64,000 nucleotides of DNA, taken from the NCBI GenBank assembly GCA_964424195.1, contig CAYRHT010000001.1, positions 135,260-199,259 on the forward strand, in the 5' to 3' direction. The notes beneath the pieces were generated by a model that was not told where the DNA came from, searched no databases, and was given only the letters and a program-made list of their open reading frames with translations. Shown here in pieces: positions 842 to 57,234 of this stretch. The translations under genes and the position numbers were made by a program. The DNA is from an uncultured Gammaproteobacteria bacterium. GTDB taxonomy: Bacteria; Patescibacteriota; Patescibacteriia; UBA1558; S5-K13. Numbering within the stretch: the first letter of the stretch is position 1; each line of letters opens with the position of its first letter.

Positions 842-3127
842 ATGAAAGTTACTCAAGAAAATTTAAATAAATATAAAATTGCTTTAACTTTAGATGAAGC
901 TATAAAACTGCGAGATGAAATTTTAAAAAGGGAACCAACTCTAACCGAGCTGGTTGCTTTTGGAATTGAGGGCAGTGAACATTGTTCATATAAGAGTAGT
1001 CGTGATTATTTAAAGCAATTACCTACTGATGCTCCTAATGTAATTTTAGGTCCCAAAGAAGATGCCGGAATTATTCGAATCGCTGAAGGTTGGGGAGTGG
1101 TAATGGCTCATGAATCACATAATCATCCTTCTCAAGTTGTTCCTTATGAGGGAGCAGCAACAGGTATCGGTGGTATTGTACGAGATGTGCTTTGTATGGG
1201 AGCTAAAGTAATTGCTGTGTTAGACGGTCTTAGATTTGGAGATATTGAAAGAAATCATACTCAATGGATTCAATCTGGAGTAGTTTCAGGAATTTGTGGT
1301 TATGGAAATCCAATTGGAGTAGCAAATATTGGTGGTGATCTATATTACAATAAATCTTACAATGATAATTGTTTAGTTAATGTGGGGGCTATGGGTTTAA
1401 TTAAAGAAGATGAAATTATTCATTCTTTTGCTCCGAAAGATGCCGAAGGACTTAATTATATTCTTCTAGGTAAGCCAACAGATAATAGTGGTTTTGGTGG
1501 AGCTAGTTTTGCTAGTTTTGAATTAGATGAGAAAGACAAAGAATCGAATAAAGGTGCAGTTCAAGAACCAAACGCTTTTTTAAAGAGACATATTTTTGAA
1601 TCTACTTACGACTTATTTAAAATTTTAAAAGAAAAGAATTTATTAGATAAAATTGGTTTTAAAGATCTAGGAGCTGGTGGAATATTATGTTCTACAGTTG
1701 AAATGGCTGACCATGCTGGTTACGGAGCACTTATTGACTTAGATAAAGTTCATGTTGGTATGGATAATTTAGAACCTTATGTAATTCTTTCTGCAGAAAC
1801 TCAGGAAAGATTTATGTGGGTAGCTGATGATGAAGTCACGGAGTTAATTTTAAAACATTATAATGAGAAATGGGCTTTACCAGAAGTTTCTCGAGGAGTA
1901 AGAGCTTCAGTAATTGGTAAAATTCAAAAAGGAAATTATCAAGTTAAGTATAAAGGAGAAATAATTTTAGATGCTAAAGCTAATGATGTTACTGAAGGAT
2001 TAAAATATGATCGACCAGTGCAAGAAATTAAATATGATTTAAGTGAACCAGGCATTAAAGTAGAAGATTATAATGAAGAGTTGATGAAATTATTGAAATC
2101 AGAAAATATTGCTAGTCGAAAGTCAGTTTATGAAAAATATGACAAACAAATTCAAGGCATAACTCATATTGAGTCAGGTGAAGCTGATGCGGGAGTAATG
2201 AAACCTTTAATTGATGAAAATTTAAATACGGGAATTGCTTTTTCTATGGACGGAAATTCTCGTTATGGAGAAATATCTCCTTATTGGCAGGGAGCTAATG
2301 CTGTTACAGAAGCAATGAGGAATGTAGCTGCTGTGGGAGCTATTCCTTGGGGATTAACTGATTGTTTAAATTATGGTAATCCAGAAAAACCAGAACAAAT
2401 GTGGCAATTTGCGGAAGGAATTAAAGGTGTAGCAGATGCAGCCAAGAATATTCATTTAAAAACCTATCCTGATTCACCAACTCCTTTTGTATCTGGAAAT
2501 GTGAGTTTCTATAATCAGTCTAAGAATCAATCTATTAATCCATCAGCAGTTATTATTTGTTTAGGAAAGCTAGAGGATTATCATCAAGCGATTACTATGG
2601 ATATTAAAAAATCAGATAGCAATTTATATTTAATTGGTCCTCGGAAAAATGAATTAGGAGCTTCTGAATTTTATAACCTCCACGATGAATTAGGAGCTAA
2701 TGTTCCTCAGTCAGATTTCAAAGAGGTAGAAAAAGAAATTTATGCTTTAACTGATTCTATCGAGCAAGGTTTAGTATTATCAGCTCATGATATTTCCGAA
2801 GGTGGTTTAGCTGTTACTCTAGCAGAGATGATTATTACTAGTAAAAACAAACTTGGTTTAGAAGTTAATTTAGATAAAGTATCTGAACTTGATTTAAACA
2901 CTGTCCAAAAACTATTTTCCGAAACTGGTGGTTTTGTAATTGAAGTTAGTTCAGAAAACGATGAAAAACTCAAAGAAGTATTTAAAAACAGAGGAGTAGA
3001 ACTTTATAACCTAGGAAAAACAAATGAGAGCAAAGAATTAAAGATTGTAGATAAAGAAGAAATTATTAATTTGAAAGTTGATCAGATGCACGATGCCTGG
3101 TCAAATTCTTTAAGATCAAAATTATGA
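842..3127 (+). CDS. purL: Phosphoribosylformylglycinamidine synthase subunit PurL
   Basis: 761 aa. Contains the PurL motifs GPKEDAGIIRI and AHESHNHPSQVVPYEGAATGIGGIVRD. Confidence 0.93.
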   Translation: MKVTQENLNKYKIALTLDEAIKLRDEILKREPTLTELVAFGIEGSEHCSYKSSRDYLKQLPTDAPNVILGPKEDAGIIRIAEGWGVVMAHESHNHPSQVVPYEGAATGIGGIVRDVLCMGAKVIAVLDGLRFGDIERNHTQWIQSGVVSGICGYGNPIGVANIGGDLYYNKSYNDNCLVNVGAMGLIKEDEIIHSFAPKDAEGLNYILLGKPTDNSGFGGASFASFELDEKDKESNKGAVQEPNAFLKRHIFESTYDLFKILKEKNLLDKIGFKDLGAGGILCSTVEMADHAGYGALIDLDKVHVGMDNLEPYVILSAETQERFMWVADDEVTELILKHYNEKWALPEVSRGVRASVIGKIQKGNYQVKYKGEIILDAKANDVTEGLKYDRPVQEIKYDLSEPGIKVEDYNEELMKLLKSENIASRKSVYEKYDKQIQGITHIESGEADAGVMKPLIDENLNTGIAFSMDGNSRYGEISPYWQGANAVTEAMRNVAAVGAIPWGLTDCLNYGNPEKPEQMWQFAEGIKGVADAAKNIHLKTYPDSPTPFVSGNVSFYNQSKNQSINPSAVIICLGKLEDYHQAITMDIKKSDSNLYLIGPRKNELGASEFYNLHDELGANVPQSDFKEVEKEIYALTDSIEQGLVLSAHDISEGGLAVTLAEMIITSKNKLGLEVNLDKVSELDLNTVQKLFSETGGFVIEVSSENDEKLKEVFKNRGVELYNLGKTNESKELKIVDKEEIINLKVDQMHDAWSNSLRSKL

Positions 3128-4047
3128 CAACAACATATAAAGATGCTGGCGTAGATATTGATGCTGGCGCAGAAGTGGTAAAAAGAATTAAGAAAATGAT
3201 TCCTAAGGTTGGTGGCTTTGGGGGAATGTTTGAATATGAAGGAATGATTTTTGTACAAAGTATTGATGGTGTCGGAACTAAAATGAAATTAGCTTCTCAA
3301 TTTGATCGTTGGGAAACAATGGGGCGAGATATAGTTAGTCATTCTTGTTTAGATATTATGTGCCAAGGTGCTACTCCAAAAACTTTTATGGACTATATTG
3401 CTGGGGCAAAAATTGATCCAGCAGTAATTGAGAAAATAGTTACAGGTATTGTTAATGAATGTCAGGAAAATGATATTTCTTTAGTTGGTGGAGAAACTGC
3501 TGAAATGCCTGGAGTTTATGCTGAAGGGGAATATGATTTAGCAGGAGCAATTATGGGAGTAATGAAAAAAGATGAAGAAATAACTGGTGAGGATATTAAA
3601 GCTGGTGACAAAGTATATGGTTTAGCTTCTATCGGTTTACATACCAATGGCTATTCTTTAGCTCGAAAAGTTTTAGAAACAGAAATTGCTGATTCTAATA
3701 TGGAAATTGTAGATCAATTATTACAACCTCATCAGAATTATTTAAAAGAGGTTAAAGAGTTAATTAAAAAATACGATATTAAAGGAATTGCTCACATAAC
3801 TGGTGGTGGATTTTTGGATAATATCCCACGAATTTTACCAGAAGGTGTGGGGGTAGAAATTAAAAAAGGAGAGTGGCCAATTTTACCAATCTTTAAAACT
3901 ATTCAAGAAAAAGGAGATGTCCCAGAAATGGATATGTATCGAACATTCAATATGGGAATTGGTTTAGTTTTAATTTCTGAAGATGAATTACCAATATATA
4001 AAATAGGGGAAGTAGTTGAAGGGGATAAGCAAGTTAAATTAATTTAA
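3124..4047 (+). CDS. purM: Phosphoribosylformylglycinamidine cyclo-ligase (AIR synthetase)
   Basis: N-terminus YKDAGVDIDAGAEVVKRIK is PurM-like. ATGA start/stop overlap with purL. Confidence 0.9.
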   Translation: MTTTYKDAGVDIDAGAEVVKRIKKMIPKVGGFGGMFEYEGMIFVQSIDGVGTKMKLASQFDRWETMGRDIVSHSCLDIMCQGATPKTFMDYIAGAKIDPAVIEKIVTGIVNECQENDISLVGGETAEMPGVYAEGEYDLAGAIMGVMKKDEEITGEDIKAGDKVYGLASIGLHTNGYSLARKVLETEIADSNMEIVDQLLQPHQNYLKEVKELIKKYDIKGIAHITGGGFLDNIPRILPEGVGVEIKKGEWPILPIFKTIQEKGDVPEMDMYRTFNMGIGLVLISEDELPIYKIGEVVEGDKQVKLI

Positions 4048-4052
4048 AAATT

Positions 4053-6257
4053 ATGTATAAAATAGCAGTATTACAATTTCCAGGAACTAATTGTGAATAT
4101 GAAGCTCAAAGAGCTGTAAATAACTCTGGAATGCAAGGAGAATTTTTTAGATGGAATCAAAATGCAGAAGAATTAGATAATTATGATGGCTATGTCGTGG
4201 CGGGAGGATTTTCTTACGAAGATCGATCCCGAGCTGGAATAATTGCTTCTTTAGATCCAATCATGAAAAAGATTAAAGAAGAGGCTGAAAAAGGAAAACC
4301 AATTATTGGAATTTGTAATGGTTGTCAGATCTTAATGGAAACTGGTTTAGTGCCTGGTTTAGAAAACAATGCTTTGGGTGGAGCTCTAGCTTTAAATACT
4401 AGAGCTCAAGATGGCAAAGTCATTGATACTGGATATTATAACGAGCAAATTTACATTAAAAACCAAACCGAGAATCGTTCTGCTTTTAATTTAGAAACAG
4501 ATAAAAATCATCACTTTAGATTACCAATTGCTCATGGAGAAGGAAGATTTGTTTTAGAAGAAGAATTATTAAAAGAATTACAGGAACATAATCAAATAGT
4601 TTTTAGATATTGTGATGCTCAAGGAGAAGTTAAAAATGAATATCCAGTAAATCCTAATGGTACTACTGATAATATTGCGGGAATTTGTAATAAAAGAGGA
4701 AATGTTTTAGCTTTAATGCCTCATCCTGAGAGAGTAGCAGAGGGACAATTTATTTTTGATTCAATGAAAAAATACATTGAAGATAATTCTAAACTTTCAG
4801 AAGCAGATTATAAATTAGAATATTCTCAGGAAATCAAAAAACCAGAAGCATATTCTAAGCCGGAGAATTCTACAGAACTATTAGTGGATATGATAATTAC
4901 TGATAATGAAGCTGTAACTGTAGAAAATGCTTTGAAACAATCCGGATTTGAAGGCGTAGAAATTAAAAAGAAAGTATATTGGAATGTTGAAGCAGATAAT
5001 CTAGATCTAGATGCTTTAGTTAAATCAGGGGAGTTATTAAATACTAATAAAGAGAATGTAATAGAGAAATTAGAAGATGGATATTTTAATCTTTTAGTAA
5101 TGTATAAGGGTGATGCTGAAGGCAAAGGAAAATTAGCTACTCTAAAAAATAAATTAGGGTTTGATAGTATTGAAGATGTTCAGAAAGGAATTTTGTGGCA
5201 AATCAAATGCAAGGAAGAGGATCTAGAGAAAATTTTAGCTACCAATATATTTTATAATCCTTTTTCACAAGATTATTTTAACTATAAATTCAAATATATG
5301 AACAAAGAAGAGATAATAAAAAACAATTTAAAAAATACTTTAACTGAAATTAATATTCCCGAGCTAGGAGAAAAGAAAATTGGTAAAGTTAGAGACACTT
5401 TTTTTAAAGATAAACAAATTATTTTAGTTACTACTGATCGACAGAGTGCTTTTGATAGAGTGTTAGCTGCTATTCCATTTAAGGGACAAGTTTTAAATCA
5501 AACATCAGCTTGGTGGTTTAAACAAGTCGAAGATATTATTCCAAATTCAGTTATCTCTACTCCTGATCCAAATGTAGTTATTCAAAAAAAATGCCAAGTA
5601 TTCCCTTTTGAAGTAATTGTGCGTGGTTATTTAACTGGTTCTACTTCAACTTCTGCTTGGACTAATTATGAAAAAGGAGTCCGAAATTTATGTGGTAATA
5701 AATTGCCAGACGATATGTGGAAGAATCAAAAATTTGAGAAGAATATTATTACTCCGAGTACTAAATTTGAAGAACATGATCGAAATATCACTCCAGACGA
5801 TATTATCAATGAAAATTTTGCCACCAGAGAAGAATGGAAGTACATTTCTCAGAAAGCTTTGGAAGTTTTTACCAGAGGACAAAAGATTGCTAAAGAACAT
5901 GGTTTAATTTTAGTAGATACCAAATATGAATTTGGTAGAGATGAGGAAGGAAATATCATGATTATTGATGAGATCCATACTCCTGATTCTTCTCGTTATT
6001 GGTTAGCTAATAATTATCAAGAAAATATTGATGAAGGAAAAGAACCAGATAATATTGATAAGGAATTTTTAAGATTATGGTTTAAAGAAAATTGTGATCC
6101 TTATCAGGATGAGAAATTACCACCAGCTCCAGATGAGTTAGTAATTGAACTTTCAAAGAGATATATTCAACTATATGAAATGATTACCGGAGAAGAGTTT
6201 AAATTTCCGGAAGGCGATGTTGAAGAAAGAATTAAAAATAATTTAAAAAATATATAG
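4053..6257 (+). CDS. purQSC: Fusion protein: PurQ glutaminase, two tandem PurS-like repeats, and PurC (SAICAR synthetase)
   Basis: N-terminus MYKIAVLQFPGTNCEYE is class I GATase PurQ. The middle has two segments of about 80 aa resembling PurS (ITDNEAVTVENALKQSGFEGVEI..., LKNKLGFDSIEDVQKGILWQIK). The C-terminus is PurC (ILVTTDRQSAFDRV, FEVIVRGYLTGS). Confidence 0.8.
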   Translation: MYKIAVLQFPGTNCEYEAQRAVNNSGMQGEFFRWNQNAEELDNYDGYVVAGGFSYEDRSRAGIIASLDPIMKKIKEEAEKGKPIIGICNGCQILMETGLVPGLENNALGGALALNTRAQDGKVIDTGYYNEQIYIKNQTENRSAFNLETDKNHHFRLPIAHGEGRFVLEEELLKELQEHNQIVFRYCDAQGEVKNEYPVNPNGTTDNIAGICNKRGNVLALMPHPERVAEGQFIFDSMKKYIEDNSKLSEADYKLEYSQEIKKPEAYSKPENSTELLVDMIITDNEAVTVENALKQSGFEGVEIKKKVYWNVEADNLDLDALVKSGELLNTNKENVIEKLEDGYFNLLVMYKGDAEGKGKLATLKNKLGFDSIEDVQKGILWQIKCKEEDLEKILATNIFYNPFSQDYFNYKFKYMNKEEIIKNNLKNTLTEINIPELGEKKIGKVRDTFFKDKQIILVTTDRQSAFDRVLAAIPFKGQVLNQTSAWWFKQVEDIIPNSVISTPDPNVVIQKKCQVFPFEVIVRGYLTGSTSTSAWTNYEKGVRNLCGNKLPDDMWKNQKFEKNIITPSTKFEEHDRNITPDDIINENFATREEWKYISQKALEVFTRGQKIAKEHGLILVDTKYEFGRDEEGNIMIIDEIHTPDSSRYWLANNYQENIDEGKEPDNIDKEFLRLWFKENCDPYQDEKLPPAPDELVIELSKRYIQLYEMITGEEFKFPEGDVEERIKNNLKNI

Positions 6258-6258
6258 T

Positions 6259-6756
6259 ATGGAAATTCTAGATGTTATTAATATAAAAGATGAGGTTATA
6301 GGAGAAGCTAGTAAGGATGAATGTCATCAAAGAGGATTAAGACATAGAAGTGTTTTTGTATTTATATTTGATAATAATGATAATTTAATTCTACAAAAAA
6401 GAAGTAGTAAAAAAAAGATAAGACCCAATAAAATAACAGCTTCCGCTTGTGGTCATGTAGTGAAAGGAGAGAATTATTTAAAAGCTGCTGAAAGAGAATT
6501 ATTAGAAGAGCTGGGCATTAAAACAAATCTAATAGAAGTTTTAAGAACAATCGGTCCTTATGATCAAGACAAAGAGAATATTGTTTTATATGAAGGTCAT
6601 TATGAAGGAGATTTAGATTTTAATAAAGAAGAAATAGCTGAAATTATCAAAATGAGTGTAAATGATATAAAGGATAAATTGGAAGAAAAAGTCTGGAATT
6701 TTGGTTCAAGTTTTAAAAAAGTATTTTTAGAATATATAAATAATAAAAATATATGA
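6259..6756 (+). CDS. Nudix hydrolase
   Basis: Nudix box GHVVKGENYLKAAERELLEELGI, matching Gx5Ex7REUxEExGU. Confidence 0.75.
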   Translation: MEILDVINIKDEVIGEASKDECHQRGLRHRSVFVFIFDNNDNLILQKRSSKKKIRPNKITASACGHVVKGENYLKAAERELLEELGIKTNLIEVLRTIGPYDQDKENIVLYEGHYEGDLDFNKEEIAEIIKMSVNDIKDKLEEKVWNFGSSFKKVFLEYINNKNI

Positions 6757-7142
6757 AAGCAATAATAATCATGGGATCAGAATCTGATAAAGATTTTGTC
6801 CAAAAAATTACAACAAAATTAAGTGAATTAAAAATTGAGTTTGAGGAGCATGTAGCTTCTGCTCATAAAAATCCTAAAGAAGTATTAGAGATTATTGAGA
6901 AAAATAATGAGTCCGATGATAAATTATGTTATATTACAGTTGCCGGAAGAAGTAATGCTTTGTCAGGTTTCACAGCTGCTAATGCTAAACACCCTGTCAT
7001 TGCTTGCCCTCCTTTGAAGGATAAAATGGATTATATGGTAAATATCCATTCTACTCTCCAAATGCCCTCAAAAGTGCCTGTAATGACTGTAATTGACCCA
7101 GGAAATGCAGCTTTAGCAGTAAGTAGAATCTTAAACTTATAA
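6753..7142 (+). CDS. purE: N5-CAIR mutase / PurE family protein (short)
   Basis: IIIMGSESD, SAHKNP and AGRSNALSG align to the PurE motifs IVMGSKSD, SAHRTP and GGAAHLPG. Confidence 0.8.
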   Translation: MKAIIIMGSESDKDFVQKITTKLSELKIEFEEHVASAHKNPKEVLEIIEKNNESDDKLCYITVAGRSNALSGFTAANAKHPVIACPPLKDKMDYMVNIHSTLQMPSKVPVMTVIDPGNAALAVSRILNL

Positions 7143-7146
7143 AAAT

Positions 7147-8472
7147 ATGGATTCATTAAATAGTATTTGTCCTTTAGATGGACGTTATCAAAAAGACCTG
7201 AAGATTCTTCAGGAGTATTTTTCAGAAAGCGCTTTAATTAATTATCGGGCCGAGGTAGAAAAGAAATATTTAATAGCTTTATTAAAATTATTAAAGAAAG
7301 CTAATGCTACTGAATTAAAGAAAATTGAAAATATTAAAATTGATTCAGCTAAAGTTAAAAAAATTGAGAGCATTACTAATCACGATGTTAAAGCAGTAGA
7401 GTATTATTTAAAAGAGGAGTTAAAGAAATTAAAATTTAGTGATGATATTTTAGAGCTAGTACATTTTGCTTTAACTTCTGAGGATATAAATAATTTAGCT
7501 TATTCTTTAATGTTTAAAGACGCTTTAGAAAAAGCCTATCTTCCAGAATTAAATAAGACTATTAAAGAATTGAAAAAGCTAGCTCAGAAGCATAAAGCTC
7601 AGACAATTTTAAGCATGACCCACGGACAGCCAGCTACTCCAACAACACTTGGAAAAGAAATGGCTGTTTTTGTTTATCGTTTAAATAGACAATTAAAGTT
7701 TTCTCCTTTGCTAGGAAAATTAGCAGGAGCTACTTCTAATTGGGCTGCTCATTATGTCGCTTATCCAAAGATTGATTGGTTTAAATTTAGTGAAAAATTT
7801 GTGAAGTCTCTCGGCTTAGAATTAAATCCTTTAACTATCCAAATTGAATCACATGATAGTTTAGCTGAGAATCATCAGCAAGTTATTAGAATAAATAATA
7901 TTCTTAAAGATTTTTCTCGAGATATGTGGCTATATATCTCCCGAGGGATTTTTAAACAAAAGGTGGTTAAGGGTGAAGTTGGTTCCTCAACTATGCCTCA
8001 TAAAGTAAATCCAATTAGATTTGAAAATGCGGAAGGTAATCTCGGAATGAGTAATGCTATCTTTGATTTTATGGCTAATAAATTACCAATTTCTCGAATG
8101 CAAAGAGATCTTTCTGATTCTACAGTATTAAGAAACCAAGGTTTAGCTTTAGGATATAGTTTTTTAGCTCTACAGAATTTAGTCAAAGGTCTAGCTCGAG
8201 TAGAAGCTAATAGTATAAAGATCAAAGAGGAATTAGATAATAATTGGGAAGTTTTAGCTGAACCAATTCAAACTGTATTAAGAAAATTAGGATATTCTGG
8301 AGCCTATGAAAAATTAAAGGAATTAACTAGAGGTAAAAAATTAAATCAAGAAATCCTAACTGAGTTTATTGATGACTTGAAGATACCTCAAGAAGAAAAA
8401 GAACAATTGAAAAAATTAACACCATTTAATTATAATGGTATTTCATCTAAATTAATTAAATATATTAAATAA
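7147..8472 (+). CDS. purB: Adenylosuccinate lyase
   Basis: N-terminus CPLDGRYQKDL is PurB-like. Fumarase/lyase family signature near GSSTMPHKVNP. Confidence 0.9.
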   Translation: MDSLNSICPLDGRYQKDLKILQEYFSESALINYRAEVEKKYLIALLKLLKKANATELKKIENIKIDSAKVKKIESITNHDVKAVEYYLKEELKKLKFSDDILELVHFALTSEDINNLAYSLMFKDALEKAYLPELNKTIKELKKLAQKHKAQTILSMTHGQPATPTTLGKEMAVFVYRLNRQLKFSPLLGKLAGATSNWAAHYVAYPKIDWFKFSEKFVKSLGLELNPLTIQIESHDSLAENHQQVIRINNILKDFSRDMWLYISRGIFKQKVVKGEVGSSTMPHKVNPIRFENAEGNLGMSNAIFDFMANKLPISRMQRDLSDSTVLRNQGLALGYSFLALQNLVKGLARVEANSIKIKEELDNNWEVLAEPIQTVLRKLGYSGAYEKLKELTRGKKLNQEILTEFIDDLKIPQEEKEQLKKLTPFNYNGISSKLIKYIK

Positions 8473-8476
8473 TATT

Positions 8477-9955
8477 ATGTGTGGAGTGGTCGGAATATTT
8501 GGTAATCAAGAAACCAGAGTAAGTTTAGAGCTTTATGATTCTTTAATTGCTTTACAGCATCGAGGACAAGATTCAGCTGGGATTATAACTCTCAATGATG
8601 GTTTTCATTTACATAAGAAATTAGGATTAGTTCGTAATGTTTTTAATGAAGAAGTTCTTTCTCGTTTAAGAGGTAATATGGGAATTGGACATGTCCGTTA
8701 TTCAACAGTTGGTGATGGGACTGCAAATGATGCTCAACCATTTTTAGCTAGTTCTCCCTATGGAATAGCTATAGCTCATAATGGTAATGTAACTAATTTT
8801 GAAAAACTTAAGAAAGAATTAGCTGAAAAAGATTTACGACAAACTAATTCTGGTTGTGATGTAGAAATAATTTTGAATGTTTTTGCTAGTGCTTTAGCGA
8901 AACAAAAAGAGGGAGATTTTAAAGAGCAAGTTTTTAAAGCAGTAGCAGAAGTTCACCAAAGAGTTCAAGGGAGCTATTCAGTAGTAGTAATCATTGCTGG
9001 TAAAGGAATGGTAGCTTTTCGAGATCCTTTAGGAATTAAACCTCTGGTAATTGGTAAACGAGGAGAAGAATATATATTTGCTTCAGAGAATGTAATGTTT
9101 ACTACATTAGGATTTGAATATCAGGGAGATGTCCAAGCTGGTGAATGTATTTTTCTTGATCAAGAGAGTAAATTACATCGGAAGTTAATTACTAAAAAAA
9201 CTCATTGTCCTTGTATTTTTGAACATGTTTATTTCGCTCGACCAGATGCATTGATTGATAATGTTAGTGTTTACAAATCTCGTTTACGAATGGGTAATAA
9301 ATTATCAGAAAAGATTAAACCTTTGATGGATGAATTAAAAATAGATGTAGTAGTCCCAGTTCCTAGTACTTCTACTACCACAGCTTTAACTTTAGCCTAT
9401 GACTTAGGAGTTAAATACCGAGAAGGATTAATGAAAAATCATTTTATTGGTCGAACATTTATTATGGAGAGTCAAGAAAAAAGAAAAAAGTCAGTTCGTT
9501 ACAAACTATCTCCCGTAGAATTAGAAATTAAAGACAAGAATGTTTTATTATTAGATGATAGTATTGTTCGAGGAAATACTTCTAAAGAAATAGTGAGACT
9601 TCTGAAAGAATGTGGAGCTAAAAAAGTATATTTTGCTGTAGCTGCTCCACCAATTAAATTTCCTTGTGTCTATGGAATTGATATGCCAACTCGACAAGAA
9701 TTAATTGCTCATAATAAAGAGAGTATGGAAGAAATTAGAAAAGAGATTGGAGCTGACTTTTTAATATATCAAGAACTTGATGATTTAGTTGATTGTGTTC
9801 ATGAGGGTAATCCGGAAGTTAGAGAATATTGTACAGCTTGTTTCTCTGGAAAGTATCCAACTAATATTTCAGCAGAAGAGTTGTTAGAACTAGAAGAAGA
9901 GAGACTGGTAGTTCGGAAGAAACAAAAAGAACAACAAATGAAAATATTTAAATAA
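8477..9955 (+). CDS. purF: Amidophosphoribosyltransferase
   Basis: N-terminal MCGVVGIFG Ntn-amidotransferase start, followed by a PRTase domain. Confidence 0.92.
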   Translation: MCGVVGIFGNQETRVSLELYDSLIALQHRGQDSAGIITLNDGFHLHKKLGLVRNVFNEEVLSRLRGNMGIGHVRYSTVGDGTANDAQPFLASSPYGIAIAHNGNVTNFEKLKKELAEKDLRQTNSGCDVEIILNVFASALAKQKEGDFKEQVFKAVAEVHQRVQGSYSVVVIIAGKGMVAFRDPLGIKPLVIGKRGEEYIFASENVMFTTLGFEYQGDVQAGECIFLDQESKLHRKLITKKTHCPCIFEHVYFARPDALIDNVSVYKSRLRMGNKLSEKIKPLMDELKIDVVVPVPSTSTTTALTLAYDLGVKYREGLMKNHFIGRTFIMESQEKRKKSVRYKLSPVELEIKDKNVLLLDDSIVRGNTSKEIVRLLKECGAKKVYFAVAAPPIKFPCVYGIDMPTRQELIAHNKESMEEIRKEIGADFLIYQELDDLVDCVHEGNPEVREYCTACFSGKYPTNISAEELLELEEERLVVRKKQKEQQMKIFK

Positions 9956-9959
9956 AATT

Positions 9960-32676: not shown

Positions 32677-32762
32677 GCCGAAGTGGCGGAACTGGTAGAC
32701 GCGCACGACTCAAAATCGTGTGGACTTTGTCCGTGAGAGTTCAAGTCTCTCCTTCGGCACCA
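32677..32762 (+). tRNA. tRNA-Leu (anticodon CAA), class II with long variable arm
   Basis: GCCGAAGTGGCGGAA...CTCAAAA anticodon loop, long extra arm, T-arm GTTCAAGTC and 3' CCA encoded. Confidence 0.85.
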
Positions 32763-32802
32763 TTGACAAAGAGATGAATATTTATTATCATCTCTATATC
32801 GT

Positions 32803-32879
32803 CGCGGGGTGGAGCAGTCTGGCAGCTCGTCAGGCCCATAACCTGAAGGTCGTAGGTTCAAATCCTACCCCCGCTACCA
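32803..32879 (+). tRNA. tRNA-Met (anticodon CAU), likely initiator type
   Basis: CGCGGGGTGGAGCAG start resembles bacterial tRNA-fMet. C1:U72 mismatch at the acceptor end. Anticodon loop cCCATAA. CCA encoded. Confidence 0.75.
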
Positions 32880-32896
32880 ATTTTCTTTAATATCTA

Positions 32897-32973
32897 GGCA
32901 GGGTAGCTCAGTTGGTTAGAGCGCAGGACTCATAAGCCTGAGGTCGCGAGTTCAATTCTCGCCCCTGCTACCA
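32897..32973 (+). tRNA. tRNA with CAU anticodon (elongator Met or lysidine-modified Ile2)
   Basis: GGCAGGGTAGCTCAGTTGGTTAGAGC...CTCATAA anticodon loop, T-arm GTTCAATTC, CCA encoded. Confidence 0.75.
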
Positions 32974-35319: not shown

Positions 35320-35492
35320 TTTTCCTCCTATAGAAAATATTTTTTAATTATAATTAAAGTATATCATACTTTAATATAAATGTCAAGTAATTTATCCACT
35401 TTTAGAGTTGATTTATCCTCTAAAATAGAGTAAAATAAAGGTAACGAAAAGGTCGTTTTTTGTTTATTTTATACATTTATTTACATAAATAT

Positions 35493-38240
35493 ATGGCGTG
35501 GAAAGTAAAGAAAGTAAAAGCTAAAAAAGTTGTTAAAAAGGCTGTAAAAAAGCCAGTTAAAAAAGTAATTAAGAAGAAGGCTGTTCCTAAAAAGAAGAGT
35601 CTTGTTAAAGTTAAAAAAGTTGCTAAAAAGACTATTAAAAAAACAGTAAAGAAAGTTGTTAAGAAAGCTCCTGTTAAAAAAGTAGTTAAGAAGGTTATTT
35701 CTAAAAAACCAGAAGTTAAAAAAGAAGTAATTAAAGAAATTAAACCAGAAACTGAAGTAGTTGTTCCAGAAGTAGTAGAGGATAAAATTGAAATAGAAAG
35801 AACTCCGAATGGTAAAAATGTTTCTGACCAACCTTTAGTTGAAGAAATGAAAACTTCTTATTTAGATTATGCAATGAGTGTTATTGTCTCTAGAGCTTTA
35901 CCAGATGTCCGAGATGGTTTAAAACCAGTACATAGAAGAATTCTTTATGCCATGTGGAAACTCGGTTTAAGACCAAGTGCTAAGTTTAGAAAATCAGCTA
36001 CAGTAGTCGGTGAAGTTTTAGGTAAATATCATCCTCATGGAGATTCTTCAGTTTATGATGCTATGGTGCGTATGGCTCAAGAGTTTTCTCTAAGATATAT
36101 GTTAGTTAATGGTCAGGGTAACTTTGGTTCTATTGATGGAGATGGTGCAGCGGCTATGAGATATACTGAAGCTAAATTACAAAAGATCTCTGAAGAATTA
36201 TTATCTGATATTGAAAAAGATACAGTTGATTTTATGCCAAACTATGATGGTTCTCAAAAAGAACCAGTAGTTTTGCCAGCTCGAGTTCCAAACCTTCTTT
36301 TAAATGGTTCTATGGGTATTGCGGTTGGTATGGCTACAAATATTCCTCCTCATAATCTGAGAGAGGTAGTAGATGCTACTTGTCATTTGATTGATCATCC
36401 TCAAGCTGATGTAGATGCTTTGATGGAATTTGTAAAAGGCCCTGATTTCCCAACTGGTGGAATTGCCTATGATGTTAAAGAATTAAAGTCCGCTTATTCA
36501 ACTGGTAAGGGTGGAGTAGTAGTGCGAGCTAAGACTGAAATTACTGAAGGTAAAAAAGGATTTAAAATTATTGTTTCAGAAATTCCTTATCAAGTAAATA
36601 AATCTACATTATTAGAAAAGATAGCTAATTTAGTTAAAGACAAGAAAATTACTGGTGTTAGTGATCTAAGAGATGAATCTAATAAAGATGGTATTCGGAT
36701 TGTTATTTATTTAAAGGATTCAGCTTATCCAAAGAAGATTCTAAATAGTCTTTACAAACATACTCAACTCCAAGATAAGTTTCATTTTAATACAGTTGCT
36801 TTAATTGATGGTATTCAACCTAAATTATTATCCTTGAAAGTAATTTTAAGTGAGTTTATTAAACATCGACAAGAAGTTGTTACTCGAAGAGTAACTTTTG
36901 ATTTGAATAAAGCTAAAGACCGAGCTCATATTTTAGAGGGATTGGTAATGGCTTTAGAAAAAATTGATGCGATTATTAAAACCATTAAACAATCTAAGGA
37001 TAAAGAAATTGCTAAAGTTAATTTAATTAAGAAATTCAAGTTAACAGATAGACAGGCAGTAGCAATTTTAGAAATGAAGTTGCAACAATTAGCTAATTTA
37101 GAAAAATTAAAATTAGAAGAAGAGCTTAAAGAAAAGAAAAGAATTATTAGAGAATTAACAGCAATTTTGAAAGATCCTAAGAAAGTATTAAAGATTATTA
37201 AAGATGAGCTTCATGAAATTAAAGATAAATTTGGTGATGAAAGAAGAACTAGAATTATTAAAGGTAAAGTAGACCAAATTTCTAGTGAAGATTTAATTCC
37301 TAAAGAAGAGATTGTCGTGATTATGACTAAAGATGGATATATCAAACGAATGTCTACTGATAATTTCCATACTCAGAATAGAGGTGGAAAAGGAGTTATT
37401 GGTTCAGCTACTAAAGAAGAAGATGTTATCGAAAGATTATTTGCTTGTACAACTCATTCAGATTTATTGTTCTTTACTAGTCGAGGTAGAGTTTTCCAAT
37501 TGAAATCCTATGAAATTCCAGTAGCTACTCGCCAAGCTAAGGGACAGAATATTGTTAACTTCCTCCAATTAGCTCCAGAAGAAAAAGTAAACGCTATTTT
37601 ACCTAATGATGAAATTGCAGAGTTAAAGTATTTAATGTTCATTACTAATAATGGTTTAATTAAGAAAACAGAGATTGATAAATTTTCTAATGTTCGGAAA
37701 TCAGGATTAATTTCTATTAAATTAAAAGATGGTGACTTCTTGAAATGGGTTAAACCAACTACTGGTAAAGATGAAGTAGTTTTAGTAACTGCTAATGGCC
37801 AGTCTATTAGAACTAAAGAAAAGAATATCCGATCAATGGGAAGATCAGCTTCTGGTGTGAGAGGTATTAGATTAAAAGGTGAAGATCAGATTGTTGGTAT
37901 GTTAATTATCAATCCAAAACGAACGGATAAAGATAAGCTGTCCATAGTTATGGAAAATGGTTTTGGTAAGAAGACATTTTTGAAAGCTTATAAAGTTCAA
38001 GGACGAGGTGGTTCTGGAATTAAGACTGCTAAGGTTACTGCTAAAACTGGAAAGATTGTTTCCGCTTTCATAGCCGATGAAGAAAACAAAGATAAGGATA
38101 TTATCATTATTTCTACCGGAGCCCAAGTAATTCGATTAGCTTTAAAGAATATCCCTACAATTGGTAGAGCTACTCAAGGAGTAAGATTAATGAGATTTAA
38201 GAAAGCTGGAGACAAAGTAGCTTCAGTAACTATAGTTTAA
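35493..38240 (+). CDS. gyrA: DNA gyrase subunit A with a lysine-rich, histone-H1-like N-terminal extension
   Basis: GyrA core ([33 protein letters not shown], active-site region, GyrA-box NRGGKG) preceded by about 110 aa of KKxVKK repeats. Start at 35493 chosen over the ORF-track 35460. Confidence 0.88.
35496..35780 (+). repeat. Tandem coding repeats (AAAAAGTTGTTAAGAAAG-like) encoding KKVVKK-type lysine-rich repeats
   Basis: Low-complexity K/V/A repeats. The six-frame antisense ORF 35481..35831 is an artefact of this repeat. Confidence 0.7.
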
Positions 38241-55365: not shown

Positions 55366-57234
55366 ATGTTTAAACAAAAACAAATTCAAGAAACAAATAA
55401 TGCTTCTGAACAGGATTCACAAGTTTCAACACAGAATAATGTTCAAGATAAGCGTTTTTTAGAAGCTGAAAAAGTATATCGAAGAGGTAAGACTTCTGTT
55501 AAAGATTTAATTGCTCCAGCTGCTTTTAAAGTAGAAAGTAGTTTTCTTCGGATTGGTGATAAATATGTTAGTACTATTTATGTTATAACTTATCCTCGAT
55601 ATATTAGTATTGGATGGTTTGCTCCAGTTATTAATTATTCTATTCCTTTGGATGTTGCTATGTATTACTATCCTTTACCTTCAGAAAAGATTTTAAAAAA
55701 GTTAAGAAACAAAGTTGGTTCTTTGGAAGCTCAATTACATGGTGATGCTGAAAAAGGTGCTCCTCGTGATCCCCAAAGACAAACTGCCTTACAAGATATT
55801 GAAGAATTAAGAGATAATTTGACTCAAGGTACAGAGAAATTTTTTCAATTTGCTTTGTATATAACTATTTATGCTAATGATCCAGAAGAATTAGAAAAAA
55901 GAGTTGAAAATGTTGAAAATATTTTTGGTTCAAAATTAATTTTTACTAAGAGAGCATTATTTACTTCTAAAGAAGGATTTAATTCAACTTTACCACTAGG
56001 TAATGACGAATTATACATTGCCAACAATATGAATTCATCCCCGGCTTCTGCCTCTTTCCCTTTTATCTCTTCCGAATTAACTAGTGATGATGGTATTTTG
56101 TATGGAATTAATCGACATAATAATTCTCTGATACTTTTTGATAGATTTTCTTTACAAAATGCTAATGCTGTTGTTTTTGCTACTTCTGGTGCTGGTAAAT
56201 CCTACGCTATTAAGTTAGAAGTAATTCGAAGTTTAATGATGGGTACAGAGGTTATTATAATTGATCCGGAAAAAGAATATCAACATTTATCAGAAGCAGT
56301 AGGAGGAACATATATTAATCTTTCTCTAAATTCTAATTCTAAAGTTAATCCTTTCGATTTACCTAAGGGTTTAAGTAAAGAGATGAAGGCGGCTGATGTT
56401 TTAAGAAGTGCTGTAATTACTTTAAAAGGATTAATTCGTTTAATGGTCGGTAAATTATCTCATTTGGAAGATTCTTTAGTTGATCGAGCGCTTTTAGAAA
56501 CTTATGCTAAAAAAGATATTACAGCAGATAGTGATTTAGATGATGTAGAAGCTCCTTTGATGGCAGATTTTGAAGAAGTTTTAAATGGAATGGAAGGTGG
56601 AGGAGACTTAGCTCAAAGAATTAAAAAATATACTGAAGGAACTTTTGCAGGACTTTTTAATAGTCCTACTAATGTTGATGTTACTAATCAATTAATTACT
56701 TTTAGTGTTCGAGATTTAGAAGATGAATTAAGACCAATCGCTATTTATACCATTATTACCTATATTTGGAATTTAGTTAGATCTCAAGTTAAGAAGAGAA
56801 TCTTAATTATTGATGAGGCTTGGTGGTTAATGCAACATGAAGATAGTGCTAAGTTTATCTATGCTTTAGTAAAAAGATGTCGAAAATACTATTTAGGAGT
56901 AACTACTATTACTCAGGATGTTAATGACTTTTTAAGATCACCATATGGTCAAGCTATTGTTACTAATTCTTCTTTACAATTATTGTTAAAACAGTCTCCA
57001 GCAGCTATTGATCTAATTCAAAAGACTTTTATGCTGACTGATGAAGAAAAATATTTACTATTACAAGGTAAAGTTGGACAAGGAATTTTCTTTGCTGGAA
57101 ACAAGCATGTCGCAATTCAAATTGAAGCATCATATACTGAAGATCAATTAATTACCTCTGATCCAAAACAACTTTTAGAAATTGAAGAAGCTAAGAGAGA
57201 GTTTAAAGACAAACAAGTAAAAGAAAATTCTTAA
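55366..57234 (+). CDS. VirB4/TrsE/PrgJ-like conjugation ATPase
   Basis: Walker A ATSGAGKSY, Walker B ILIIDEAWWLM. N-terminal IAPAAFKVESSFLRIGDKYVSTIYVITYP typical of Gram-positive VirB4 homologues. Confidence 0.8.
   Translation: MFKQKQIQETNNASEQDSQVSTQNNVQDKRFLEAEKVYRRGKTSVKDLIAPAAFKVESSFLRIGDKYVSTIYVITYPRYISIGWFAPVINYSIPLDVAMYYYPLPSEKILKKLRNKVGSLEAQLHGDAEKGAPRDPQRQTALQDIEELRDNLTQGTEKFFQFALYITIYANDPEELEKRVENVENIFGSKLIFTKRALFTSKEGFNSTLPLGNDELYIANNMNSSPASASFPFISSELTSDDGILYGINRHNNSLILFDRFSLQNANAVVFATSGAGKSYAIKLEVIRSLMMGTEVIIIDPEKEYQHLSEAVGGTYINLSLNSNSKVNPFDLPKGLSKEMKAADVLRSAVITLKGLIRLMVGKLSHLEDSLVDRALLETYAKKDITADSDLDDVEAPLMADFEEVLNGMEGGGDLAQRIKKYTEGTFAGLFNSPTNVDVTNQLITFSVRDLEDELRPIAIYTIITYIWNLVRSQVKKRILIIDEAWWLMQHEDSAKFIYALVKRCRKYYLGVTTITQDVNDFLRSPYGQAIVTNSSLQLLLKQSPAAIDLIQKTFMLTDEEKYLLLQGKVGQGIFFAGNKHVAIQIEASYTEDQLITSDPKQLLEIEEAKREFKDKQVKENS

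Follow-up and report, generated by a model that had tools for sequence, protein, structure and literature searches.

The GyrA subunit of DNA gyrase encoded in the window (the whole 64-kb stretch of DNA that was analysed, 29.5% GC) carries an N-terminal tail of about 100 residues, a lysine-rich half followed by an acidic or mixed one, and all eight close relatives keep such a tail. The host is a tiny-genome, Komeilibacteria-like member of the Patescibacteria. We infer that the tail is a polycationic, disordered tether for DNA at the DNA gate of the enzyme, and put the probability of this reading, DNA binding and effect on the enzyme included, at about 60%.

According to the ORF list of the window, gyrA occupies positions 35493..38240 of the forward strand, starts with the ATG at 35493 and encodes 915 aa. 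The following parts were located behind the tail.

35805..35855, forward strand: conserved pre-core segment, start of the GyrA N-terminal arm (residues 105-121, before SYLDYAMS)
35892..37211, forward strand: GyrA catalytic core, PF00521 (residues 134-573, Pfam E = 1.5e-167)
37302..38240, forward strand: C-terminal beta-pinwheel domain and stop codon (boundaries approximate)
37374..37394, forward strand: GyrA box QNRGGKG (residues 628-634, first blade of the C-terminal domain)

What tells gyrase apart from topoisomerase IV ParC is a six-bladed pinwheel whose blade 1 contains the GyrA box QxRGGxG. The protein has both the core domain with the catalytic tyrosine (Tyr224 at 36162-36164, within an AAAMRYTE motif) and the pinwheel with the GyrA box, six PF03989 blades following PF00521 in the Pfam search, and solved GyrA chains are matched at 1e-90 or better. 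It ends with ...DKVASVTIV right after blade 6, and the acidic C-terminal tail is absent; gyrB was not found among the scanned ORFs of the window (20 of 52 ORFs, at least 120 aa, taken through Pfam). The core has a net charge of +38, and what a tether would gain from more positive charge is not self-evident.

Residues 1-133 gave no Pfam match at E <= 0.001. Homology to solved GyrA chains begins at query residue 101-114, which pairs with residue 7-11 of the B. subtilis, S. aureus and E. coli proteins, and the pre-core segment aligns to residues 7-20 of the solved chains. Most of the clade keeps its sequence RTPNGKN[VI]xDQ[PS][LI]VEEMK, and three relatives (L004, L005, L006) have variants of it. 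Judged from these alignments, the N-terminal excess over solved GyrA is about 100 aa. Within and across it lie the following features.

35493..35516, forward strand: start codon and conserved motif MAWKVKKV (M[AS]W[KT][VI]KKV in 8/8 clade members)
35493..35720, forward strand: polybasic segment of xKKx tetrads (residues 1-76, 36 Lys, net +35)
35514..35665, forward strand: internal duplication (arms 35514-35575 and 35604-35665, 81% identical)
35721..35804, forward strand: acidic or mixed linker (residues 77-104, net -4)
35481..35831, reverse strand: antisense ORF of 116 aa, F/N/L-rich, a mirror of Lys and Val codons and not a gene

The tail is a bipartite module, basic then acidic. The first-pass annotation had described a single KK-repeat tail of about 110 aa on GyrA; the tail itself is confirmed, but the excess is nearer to 100 aa, its lysine-rich part comprises residues 1-76, and the acidic second half had been missed. 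Lysine makes up 47% of the basic segment, the 36 K being accompanied by 19 V, 6 A and 4 P (25%, 8% and 5%). The lysines are spaced as KK plus two neutral residues (V, A, I, T or P), with an autocorrelation peak at lag 4 (0.36), and the usage of AAA versus AAG is the same in tail and core. Lysine density reaches 21 K in 40 aa in GyrA; the other ORFs of the 64 kb (80 aa or longer) all stay below 14 K in any 40 aa. An amphipathic-helix signal in the tail did not exceed the shuffled null. AF2 hints that the tail may be intrinsically disordered: residues 1-110 receive a pLDDT below 50 and no secondary structure, in a model that is poor overall (mean pLDDT 53) and too poor for a fold search. The likeness to histone H1 and AKP-type tails drawn earlier holds for the charge alone; the segment is K/V-rich rather than rich in A and P, matches no linker-histone, Hc1 or other Pfam domain, and contains no [ST]PKK in the window copy. 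One or two [ST]PKK motifs occur in some relatives (L003-L006, L012).

A nucleotide-level tandem repeat, also reported for this region, survives only in part. The tail-coding DNA has a degenerate 12-nt periodicity and a single duplication whose arms, detected by repeat search, are 90 nt (30 aa) apart, but TRF finds only 2-4 copies of 9-15-nt units with 68-90% match and one 100% pair of 9 nt. Slippage in a genome of 29.5% GC yields Lys-rich low complexity. The antisense ORF had rightly been called spurious: neither the frame nor the length (30-136 codons) of antisense open stretches is constant among the relatives, and it is therefore a compositional by-product.

The tail is a coding part of GyrA and not 5' UTR. 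Its frame is open and conserved at the protein level in all eight close relatives, and the chance that a random 118-codon stretch stays open at 29.5% GC is about 5e-5 per species. Indels relative to the closest relative (L007) measure 6, 9, 3 and 3 nt, all multiples of three. No Shine-Dalgarno sequence precedes 35493, which means little because most genes in this genome have none (a Shine-Dalgarno-like 4-mer is found in only 9 of 52 window genes), and the start context aaatatATG is typical of the source genome. The sole alternative in-frame start, ATG 35847 (Met119), lies inside the conserved pre-core segment and has no Shine-Dalgarno sequence either. A 5' UTR would have implied a strong ribosome-binding site at 35847 and a region not conserved as protein; neither was found. 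Assembly expansion of the tail is unlikely, since the identical 915-aa protein is recorded from 18-19 contigs (NCBI, ENA, Logan), the longest of 774 kb.

Upstream of the start codon, two further elements were delimited.

35408..35436, forward strand: sigma-70-type promoter of gyrA from a consensus scan (TTGATT, 17-nt spacer, TAAAAT)
35437..35492, forward strand: 5' leader, a conserved box and then an A/T-rich stretch ending in aaatatATG

Retrieved upstream sequence extends to both hexamers in five clade relatives, and all five keep the -35 and the -10; the -10 hexamer was seen in all relatives. From the position of the promoter, transcription is therefore predicted to start about 50 nt before ATG 35493, and the conservation of a promoter at this place also speaks for a coding tail. 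The leader box AAAGGTRAC-N5-6-GTCRTTTTTT (35437-35462) is conserved in 8/8 relatives. A leader hairpin or attenuator (AAAGGTGAC..GTCATTTTTT), which seemed to covary by eye, was rejected; RNAalifold returned no pairs and hence no stable consensus structure in the leader, and Rfam gave no match.

We compared the tail across the clade. The close relatives were taken from a genome scan, the first homology search having given only partial GyrA proteins of at most 79% identity, without the query's own cluster. Among the relatives the tail is kept open in 8/8 species, with a length of 105-206 aa and a core identity of 79-94%, bearing out the extension among GyrA orthologues. Third codon positions of the start motif vary (GCG/GCT/GCC/TCT), and in two relatives (L007, L002) a stop codon stands 1-2 codons upstream of the motif ATG. 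The pure electrostatics of a tether do not account for the conserved Trp3 motif. The apparent lack of the tail in L006 turned out to be an N-gap flanked by duplicated sequence, the tail itself being there. In all eight relatives the basic half is followed by a second half that is acidic or charge-neutral; L004, L005 and L006 have a strongly acidic one, reaching -8 per 20 aa, and L003 and L012 a roughly neutral one. Lysine accounts for 35-46% of the basic half across the clade while length and sequence drift, and it looks as if charge rather than sequence were the selected property. Tail dN/dS is 0.16-0.46 at dS 0.9-1.5, and core dN/dS 0.04-0.09; evolution runs 4-7 times faster in the tail, which also varies two-fold in length. 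When the tail alone was searched against 5.8 billion proteins, none of 8000 word-sharing candidates reached E <= 0.001, compositional correction probably suppressing low-complexity scores.

Lys-rich tails without sequence resemblance to this one occur on other Patescibacteria GyrA, at the N- or the C-terminus (L069, L009, P0006, P0007, P0123, P0174, P0242), in samples biased towards tails by the inclusion of MAWKVKKV among the scan patterns and of the tail in one query. The L069 tail (+22) belongs to a 45% GC genome and has a GC content of 48%; that of P0242 contains KKPAA x6; in L041 and L051 the Lys-rich tail is C-terminal and preceded by acidic residues. MPKKK... is the start of many Patescibacteria GyrA, whose extensions vary in length around a median of 34 aa. 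Among 785 ORFs in the fetched loci, 15 reach at least 14 K per 40 aa; 12 of them are GyrA, and the other Lys-rich carriers include NusA. In L016 and L021 a separate Lys-rich membrane protein is encoded beside gyrA. These upstream ORFs were considered as an unfused or read-through form of the tail and rejected; both end in TAA, that of L016 lies in another frame, and both have a transmembrane helix.

It is conceivable that the tail is a near-neutral low-complexity expansion, slippage in an AT-rich genome having inflated a short MxKKK N-terminus into a product that is translated and tolerated without specific function. The 29.5% GC of the window, the 12-nt periodicity and the 90-nt duplication, which suggest slippage or duplication, the length range with omega up to 0.46, and the variable extensions behind MPKKK... 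elsewhere in Patescibacteria all fit such an origin. We nevertheless consider it unlikely, since 8/8 species keep the tail despite near-saturated dS and omega stays below 1. MAWKVKKV and the basic-then-acidic order are conserved, other ORFs in the 64 kb have no comparable stretch, and Lys-rich stretches in the related loci are strongly concentrated on GyrA; a similar tail in the 45% GC genome likewise argues against drift in an AT-rich background.

The tether that we favour would work as follows. At the DNA gate, the N-terminus of GyrA is next to the C-terminus of GyrB and the TOPRIM domain. Because of this, two flexible polycations per A2B2 enzyme would lie beside the G-segment, with a length sufficient for contact with flanking DNA, the T-segment or DNA wrapped on the CTD. 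At this junction the alignment to B-A fusion crystal constructs is direct, and the GyrA N-terminal arm is located at the TOPRIM/DNA gate (PMC6821735). The tails would bind the DNA backbone without sequence specificity, and the non-specific DNA binding proposed at first sight remains the most economical reading. Such binding would raise affinity and slow dissociation, giving more processivity or retention in the nucleoid. The acidic linker may be a spacer, or it may tune binding by weak competition within the molecule. A bolder extension, which we regard as doubtful, is that polycationic gyrase tails were gained repeatedly and independently in Patescibacteria, at the N- or C-terminus, the window clade being the longest conserved example seen here, and make gyrase hyper-processive, nucleoid-resident and architectural. 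They could then compensate for a minimal set of nucleoid proteins and/or an absent topoisomerase IV, and the basic-acidic design would act as a wrapping switch sensitive to ionic strength or DNA.

No description of a Lys-rich N-terminal tail on GyrA was found in the literature searched, part of the search being poorly targeted. Such a tail on gyrase is apparently undescribed, but other DNA-topology enzymes are already known to use this trick. The C-terminal domain of H1, Hc1/Hc2, the KPAA repeats of AlgP and the PAKKA tail of mycobacterial HupB/Hlp are Lys-rich and disordered and bind DNA non-specifically through electrostatics. The window tail shares with the H1 C-terminal domain and the bacterial H1-like proteins a lysine content of about 40-47%, predicted disorder and putative DNA binding. 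Unlike linker histones H1/H5, it has no winged-helix or other globular domain by Pfam and no Lys/Ala/Pro tail with [ST]PKK; it is Val-rich instead of Ala/Pro-rich and sits on an enzyme, not on an architectural protein. Nor does any family profile in Pfam link it to Hc1/Hc2, AlgP or the named bacterial Lys-rich nucleoid proteins.

Streptomyces coelicolor TopA is a closer parallel, as it bears a terminal Lys-rich low-complexity tail of about 70 residues on a DNA-topology enzyme, with acidic residues after the Lys-rich part and a length that varies between genera (PMC5714199). That enzyme is of type IA and its tail is C-terminal, whereas GyrA is of type IIA and its tail N-terminal; the repeats read K1-2(A/T/N)3-5 there and KK(V/A/I/T/P)2 here, without sequence homology, and are linked to GC-rich genomes there as opposed to 29.5% GC here (PMC5714199). 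The actinobacterial lysine-repeat tails (TopA, HupS and others) bind DNA and make complexes more stable and the enzyme more processive. Of the sequence traits that define them, only the trailing acidic segment is shared, and by this comparison the window tail is best called a functional analogue, not a member. Topoisomerase II alpha likewise has a basic, disordered terminal appendage on a type IIA enzyme, a disordered C-terminal region and chromatin-tether (ChT) domain; strand passage does not require it, but the time spent on chromatin or DNA depends on it (PMC3824022, PMC5713405). Unlike the tail described here, it is C-terminal and eukaryotic, binds histones and nucleosomes and is regulated by modification, and there is no homology (PMC3824022, PMC5713405).

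Gyrase itself offers one precedent, the short, charged, unstructured C-terminal tail of GyrA in E. coli and Salmonella, which tunes processivity and the supercoil density at which the enzyme settles (PMC6463007). It is acidic, that is, of opposite charge and at the opposite terminus, and competes with DNA for the pinwheel (PMC6463007). A counterpart of it could be imagined in which the two halves of the window tail contact each other, the basic rim of the C-terminal domain or GyrB, and let ionic strength or DNA control the wrapping of DNA or the capture of the T-segment. The conserved basic-then-acidic layout, strongly acidic in three relatives, agrees with this autoinhibition, as do the acidic residues before the C-terminal Lys tails of L041 and L051, the end of the window GyrA after blade 6 with no acidic tail of its own, and the Streptomyces TopA lysine repeats, which end in acidic residues that enhance complex stability. 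Yet the acidic part is weak in the window protein (net -4) and about neutral in L003 and L012, and an intramolecular contact finds no support in structure or co-variation, which makes autoinhibition quite unlikely in our judgement.

We find it very improbable that the polycation addresses some other polyanion (RNA or ribosomes, polyphosphate, anionic membrane lipids) and localises gyrase rather than altering its affinity for DNA. The conserved Trp at position 3 in a K/V-rich sequence does resemble interfacial or amphipathic membrane-binding peptides, and Lys-rich tails occur on the membrane protein beside gyrA in L016 and L021. However, the hydrophobic moment at 100 degrees does not exceed the shuffled null in most clade members, AF2 predicts no helix, and apart from that membrane protein the tails were seen on nucleic-acid enzymes (GyrA, NusA). 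An amphipathic membrane-binding helix was rejected, its hydrophobic-moment spectrum not being consistently above the shuffled null. Finally, an untranslated or mis-assembled region with GyrA starting at Met119, to which the missing Shine-Dalgarno sequence at 35493 and a low-complexity sequence that could in principle be mis-assembled might point, is effectively refuted by the start motif and open frame conserved in eight species against such low odds of chance, the in-frame indels, the many identical contigs, the lack of an Rfam element, and a second start that also has no Shine-Dalgarno sequence and falls within homology to solved GyrA.

Few molecular machines have been studied as thoroughly as gyrase, which is also a major drug target. 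The accessory elements known in it, the TOPRIM insertion of GyrB, the GyrA box and the acidic C-terminal tail, each set processivity and supercoiling set-points that are specific to a species. To these, a conserved polycation of about 100 residues placed at the DNA gate would add a tuning element of a very different sort, in carriers that belong to a vast uncultivated radiation whose chromosome biology is essentially uncharted. If the tail were near-neutral, it would show cleanly, in a bacterium, that an essential protein can tolerate low-complexity growth. If it raises processivity, it would provide a natural design for topoisomerase engineering and a case of DNA-organising functions fused onto essential enzymes under genome reduction.

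The core of the window's GyrA is that of a canonical gyrase A subunit, since the Pfam domains (aa 134-573 as the topoisomerase IIA subunit-A domain PF00521, with E = 1.5e-167, then six blades of the beta-pinwheel), the catalytic Tyr224 (AAAMRYTE) and the GyrA box QNRGGKG (aa 628-634) are all present. An acidic C-terminal tail is absent, the chain stopping directly after blade 6, and no Pfam family matched aa 1-133. In all solved structures compared, homology begins at query residue 101-114, aligned with residue 7-11 of the GyrA chains from B. subtilis, S. aureus and E. coli; the protein therefore has an excess of about 100 residues. The gene follows those of ParA, ParB and a small hypothetical protein (minus strand) in a window of 29.5% GC. 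Two ORFs of the ORF listing concern us here:

35493..38240, plus strand: gyrA, 915 aa
35481..35831, minus strand: antisense ORF with an F/N/L-rich translation

Elsewhere in the window, a same-strand ORF run (842-17578) includes genes of purine synthesis, a pathway whose de novo form is generally considered rare in Patescibacteria. The TraG/VirB4-like ATPase, whose neighbours are ORFs without Pfam matches, may belong to a cluster related to type IV secretion, conjugation or competence.

842-3127: PurL-like AIR-synthase-domain protein
4053-6257: GATase-SAICAR synthetase (PurQ-PurC) fusion
15779-17578: GMP synthase
32677-32973: tRNA cluster (Leu-CAA, then two adjacent tRNA-Met CAT genes), directly upstream of parA
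55366-57234: TraG/VirB4-like P-loop ATPase

Residues 1-76 of GyrA contain 36 K, 19 V, 6 A and 4 P (net charge +35) and consist mostly of xKKx tetrads; residues 77-104 have a net charge of -4, and residues 105-121 run into SYLDYAMS. No other ORF of the 64-kb window holds a comparably Lys-rich stretch. The first-pass annotation had attributed the tail to a nucleotide-level tandem repeat, which is true only loosely: TRF detected short degenerate arrays (2-4 copies, periods of 9-15 nt, 68-90% match) in place of a regular one, and the repeat search one internal duplication (35514-35575 versus 35604-35665, 81% identity, spacing 90 nt). Lysine autocorrelation at lag 4 is 0.36-0.54 in the window and in L007 and L002, two gyrA loci fetched from other genomes, and almost nil in more distant members of the clade. 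The antisense translation mirrors Lys and Val codons; open antisense stretches of relatives (30-136 codons) vary in frame and length, and this ORF is indeed spurious, a by-product of composition.

The evidence is for the tail region being coding, not 5' UTR. Only two in-frame starts, ATG 35493 and ATG 35847, precede the core. The second is Met119, three residues before SYLDY, and the segment holding it aligns with the N-terminal arms of solved GyrA and is kept in relatives. No Shine-Dalgarno sequence was found before either. Of all 52 window ORFs of at least 120 aa, only 9 have a Shine-Dalgarno-like 4-mer no further than 22 nt from the start, and most window starts, 35493 included, are preceded by A and T alone (aaatatATG), a pattern that points to largely Shine-Dalgarno-independent initiation in the source organism. 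A random 118-codon frame would stay open at the window's GC with a probability of about 5e-5. The identical 915-aa protein is on record from 18-19 contigs of three sources (the longest 774 kb), which argues against assembly expansion. With no strong ribosome-binding site at the downstream start and a conserved protein region, the earlier assignment of the tail to GyrA stands. A promoter (TTGATT-17-TAAAAT), located about 55 nt upstream of ATG 35493, is conserved across relatives, as is a box directly after its -10 element:

35437-35462: conserved leader box AAAGGTRAC-N5-6-GTCRTTTTTT

L002-L007 and L012 have the box at the corresponding position, and changes in a stem of 4-6 bp look compensatory; RNAalifold gave no stable structure and Rfam no match for it. 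Its role may be that of a supercoiling-responsive or attenuator-like element.

In species-representative genomes, a scan picked up 80 GyrA loci. The closest relative is L007, a Candidatus Komeilibacteria MAG (94% identity), followed by L012, L002, L003, L004, L006 and L005 at 79-85%, and comparison of these orthologues, as proposed in the first-pass annotation, revealed the N-terminal extension in all of them. The length before SYLDY in the clade is 105-206 aa. Every copy starts with M[AS]W[KT][VI]KKV, third codon positions varying, and proceeds from a basic part (K 35-46%) to an acidic or neutral one; RTPNGKN[VI]xDQ[PS][LI]VEEMK closes most tails, with variants in L004, L005 and L006. Nucleotide indels between the window and L007 measure 6, 9, 3 and 3 nt. 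By the Nei-Gojobori method, with dS at 0.9-1.5 or more, omega is 0.16-0.46 in the tail and 0.04-0.09 in the core; the protein-level alignment of the tail makes these estimates rough.

L006 was considered as a tail-less member and rejected as an N-gap artefact, the tail being present. Its scaffold gap (a run of N with duplicated flanks, at about 3000-3100) splits gyrA artificially within the 5' end, so that automated annotation would miss the tail. The GyrA of L012 (2656-6834, 85% identity) is interrupted by an intein that immediately follows the catalytic tyrosine (AAAMRY|CITGDS...FINHN|TEAKL), in an ORF of 1392 aa, which has the Lys-rich tail too.

Among 119 Patescibacteria GyrA from a protein search, the median extension before SYLDY is 34 aa long (IQR 27-45), the sequence frequently starting with MPKKK or MAKKK, and 5 of the 119 reach at least 12 K/R in a 30-aa window. 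Long polycationic N-tails of dissimilar sequence occur in L069 (AKKA-type, +22, genome of 45% GC), in L009 and in P0006, P0007, P0121, P0123, P0125, P0135, P0174 and P0242, the P-numbers denoting GyrA proteins from protein searches. P0242, a fragment of 128 aa, has six perfect KKPAA repeats of AlgP/HupB type ahead of a GyrA/ParC-like N-terminus. Two Uhrbacteria-like GyrA (L041:2941-5559 and L051:2920-5565) have ordinary N-termini and, after acidic residues, Lys-rich C-terminal tails (...EEKKPEKKPVVKEKKKAPAKKKAVKKKPAAKKRKKK); the same kind of appendage thus exists at the other terminus. The fetched loci hold 785 ORFs of 100 aa or longer; a density of at least 14 K per 40 aa is reached by 15, of which 12 are GyrA. 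All such frequencies are only indicative, since the samples are biased towards tails: MAWKVKKV was among the patterns of the genome scan, and one protein search used a query that included the tail.

In L016 (2354-3004) and L021 (2320-3000), a separate gene directly upstream of gyrA encodes a ~220-aa protein whose N-terminal stretch of about 45 aa is rich in Lys and precedes a single predicted transmembrane helix; the L021 gene shares the frame of gyrA, only TAA and one codon intervening. A NusA-like ORF of 429 aa (L025:6507-7799) has a Lys-rich C-terminal tail (...KKNKEIKKSKKETTDKKKKTKKPKKEKKKK), so Lys-rich termini are found also on other nucleic-acid-binding proteins of Patescibacteria.

In an AF2 model (49-sequence alignment), poor as a whole with a mean pLDDT of 53, residues 1-110 have pLDDT below 50 and no secondary structure. 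Hydrophobic-moment spectra of the tails gave no consistent amphipathic-helix signal, and no Rfam family matched the tail region. At the DNA gate, the GyrA N-terminal arm packs on the TOPRIM domain of GyrB (PMC6821735), and in crystallographic GyrB-GyrA fusion constructs the chains are joined exactly at the tail position; two tails per A2B2 enzyme would therefore emerge beside the G-segment. From there, a 76-residue polycation on a 28-residue linker could reach flanking, CTD-wrapped or T-segment DNA, each tail neutralising phosphates of roughly 17 bp. A tether that binds DNA electrostatically and non-specifically is the best-supported model; it would raise affinity and processivity or nucleoid residence. 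The trailing acidic segment might act as a spacer or compete weakly; the latter role would parallel that of the acidic C-tail in E. coli GyrA, a competitor of DNA for pinwheel binding (PMC6463007).

Among other explanations, near-neutral low-complexity growth in an AT-rich genome comes first and is unlikely; that the tail is primarily a regulatory basic-acidic switch seems more doubtful still. Binding of another polyanion (RNA, polyphosphate, membrane lipids) has little to recommend it. The conserved Trp3 motif is accounted for by none of these readings.

For the tether model, the lysine repeats of Streptomyces TopA (PMC5714199) are a direct experimental precedent, although the window's tail differs from actinobacterial lysine repeats in repeat grammar and in position. 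Nor can the label histone-H1-like be retained: the tail is no member of the H1, Hc1 or AlgP families, sharing no domain and no homology with them and being K/V-rich instead of K/A/P-rich. The resemblance to all these proteins lies only in the likely mode of action. Full-text literature searches found no description of a Lys-rich N-terminal tail on GyrA. The tail is real, conserved, recurrent and apparently undescribed, yet conceptually anticipated, and its function is putative: DNA-topology enzymes with a disordered polycationic tail at one terminus are a known kind, while the occurrence of such a tail on gyrase A, at the N-terminus and in Patescibacteria, is apparently new.
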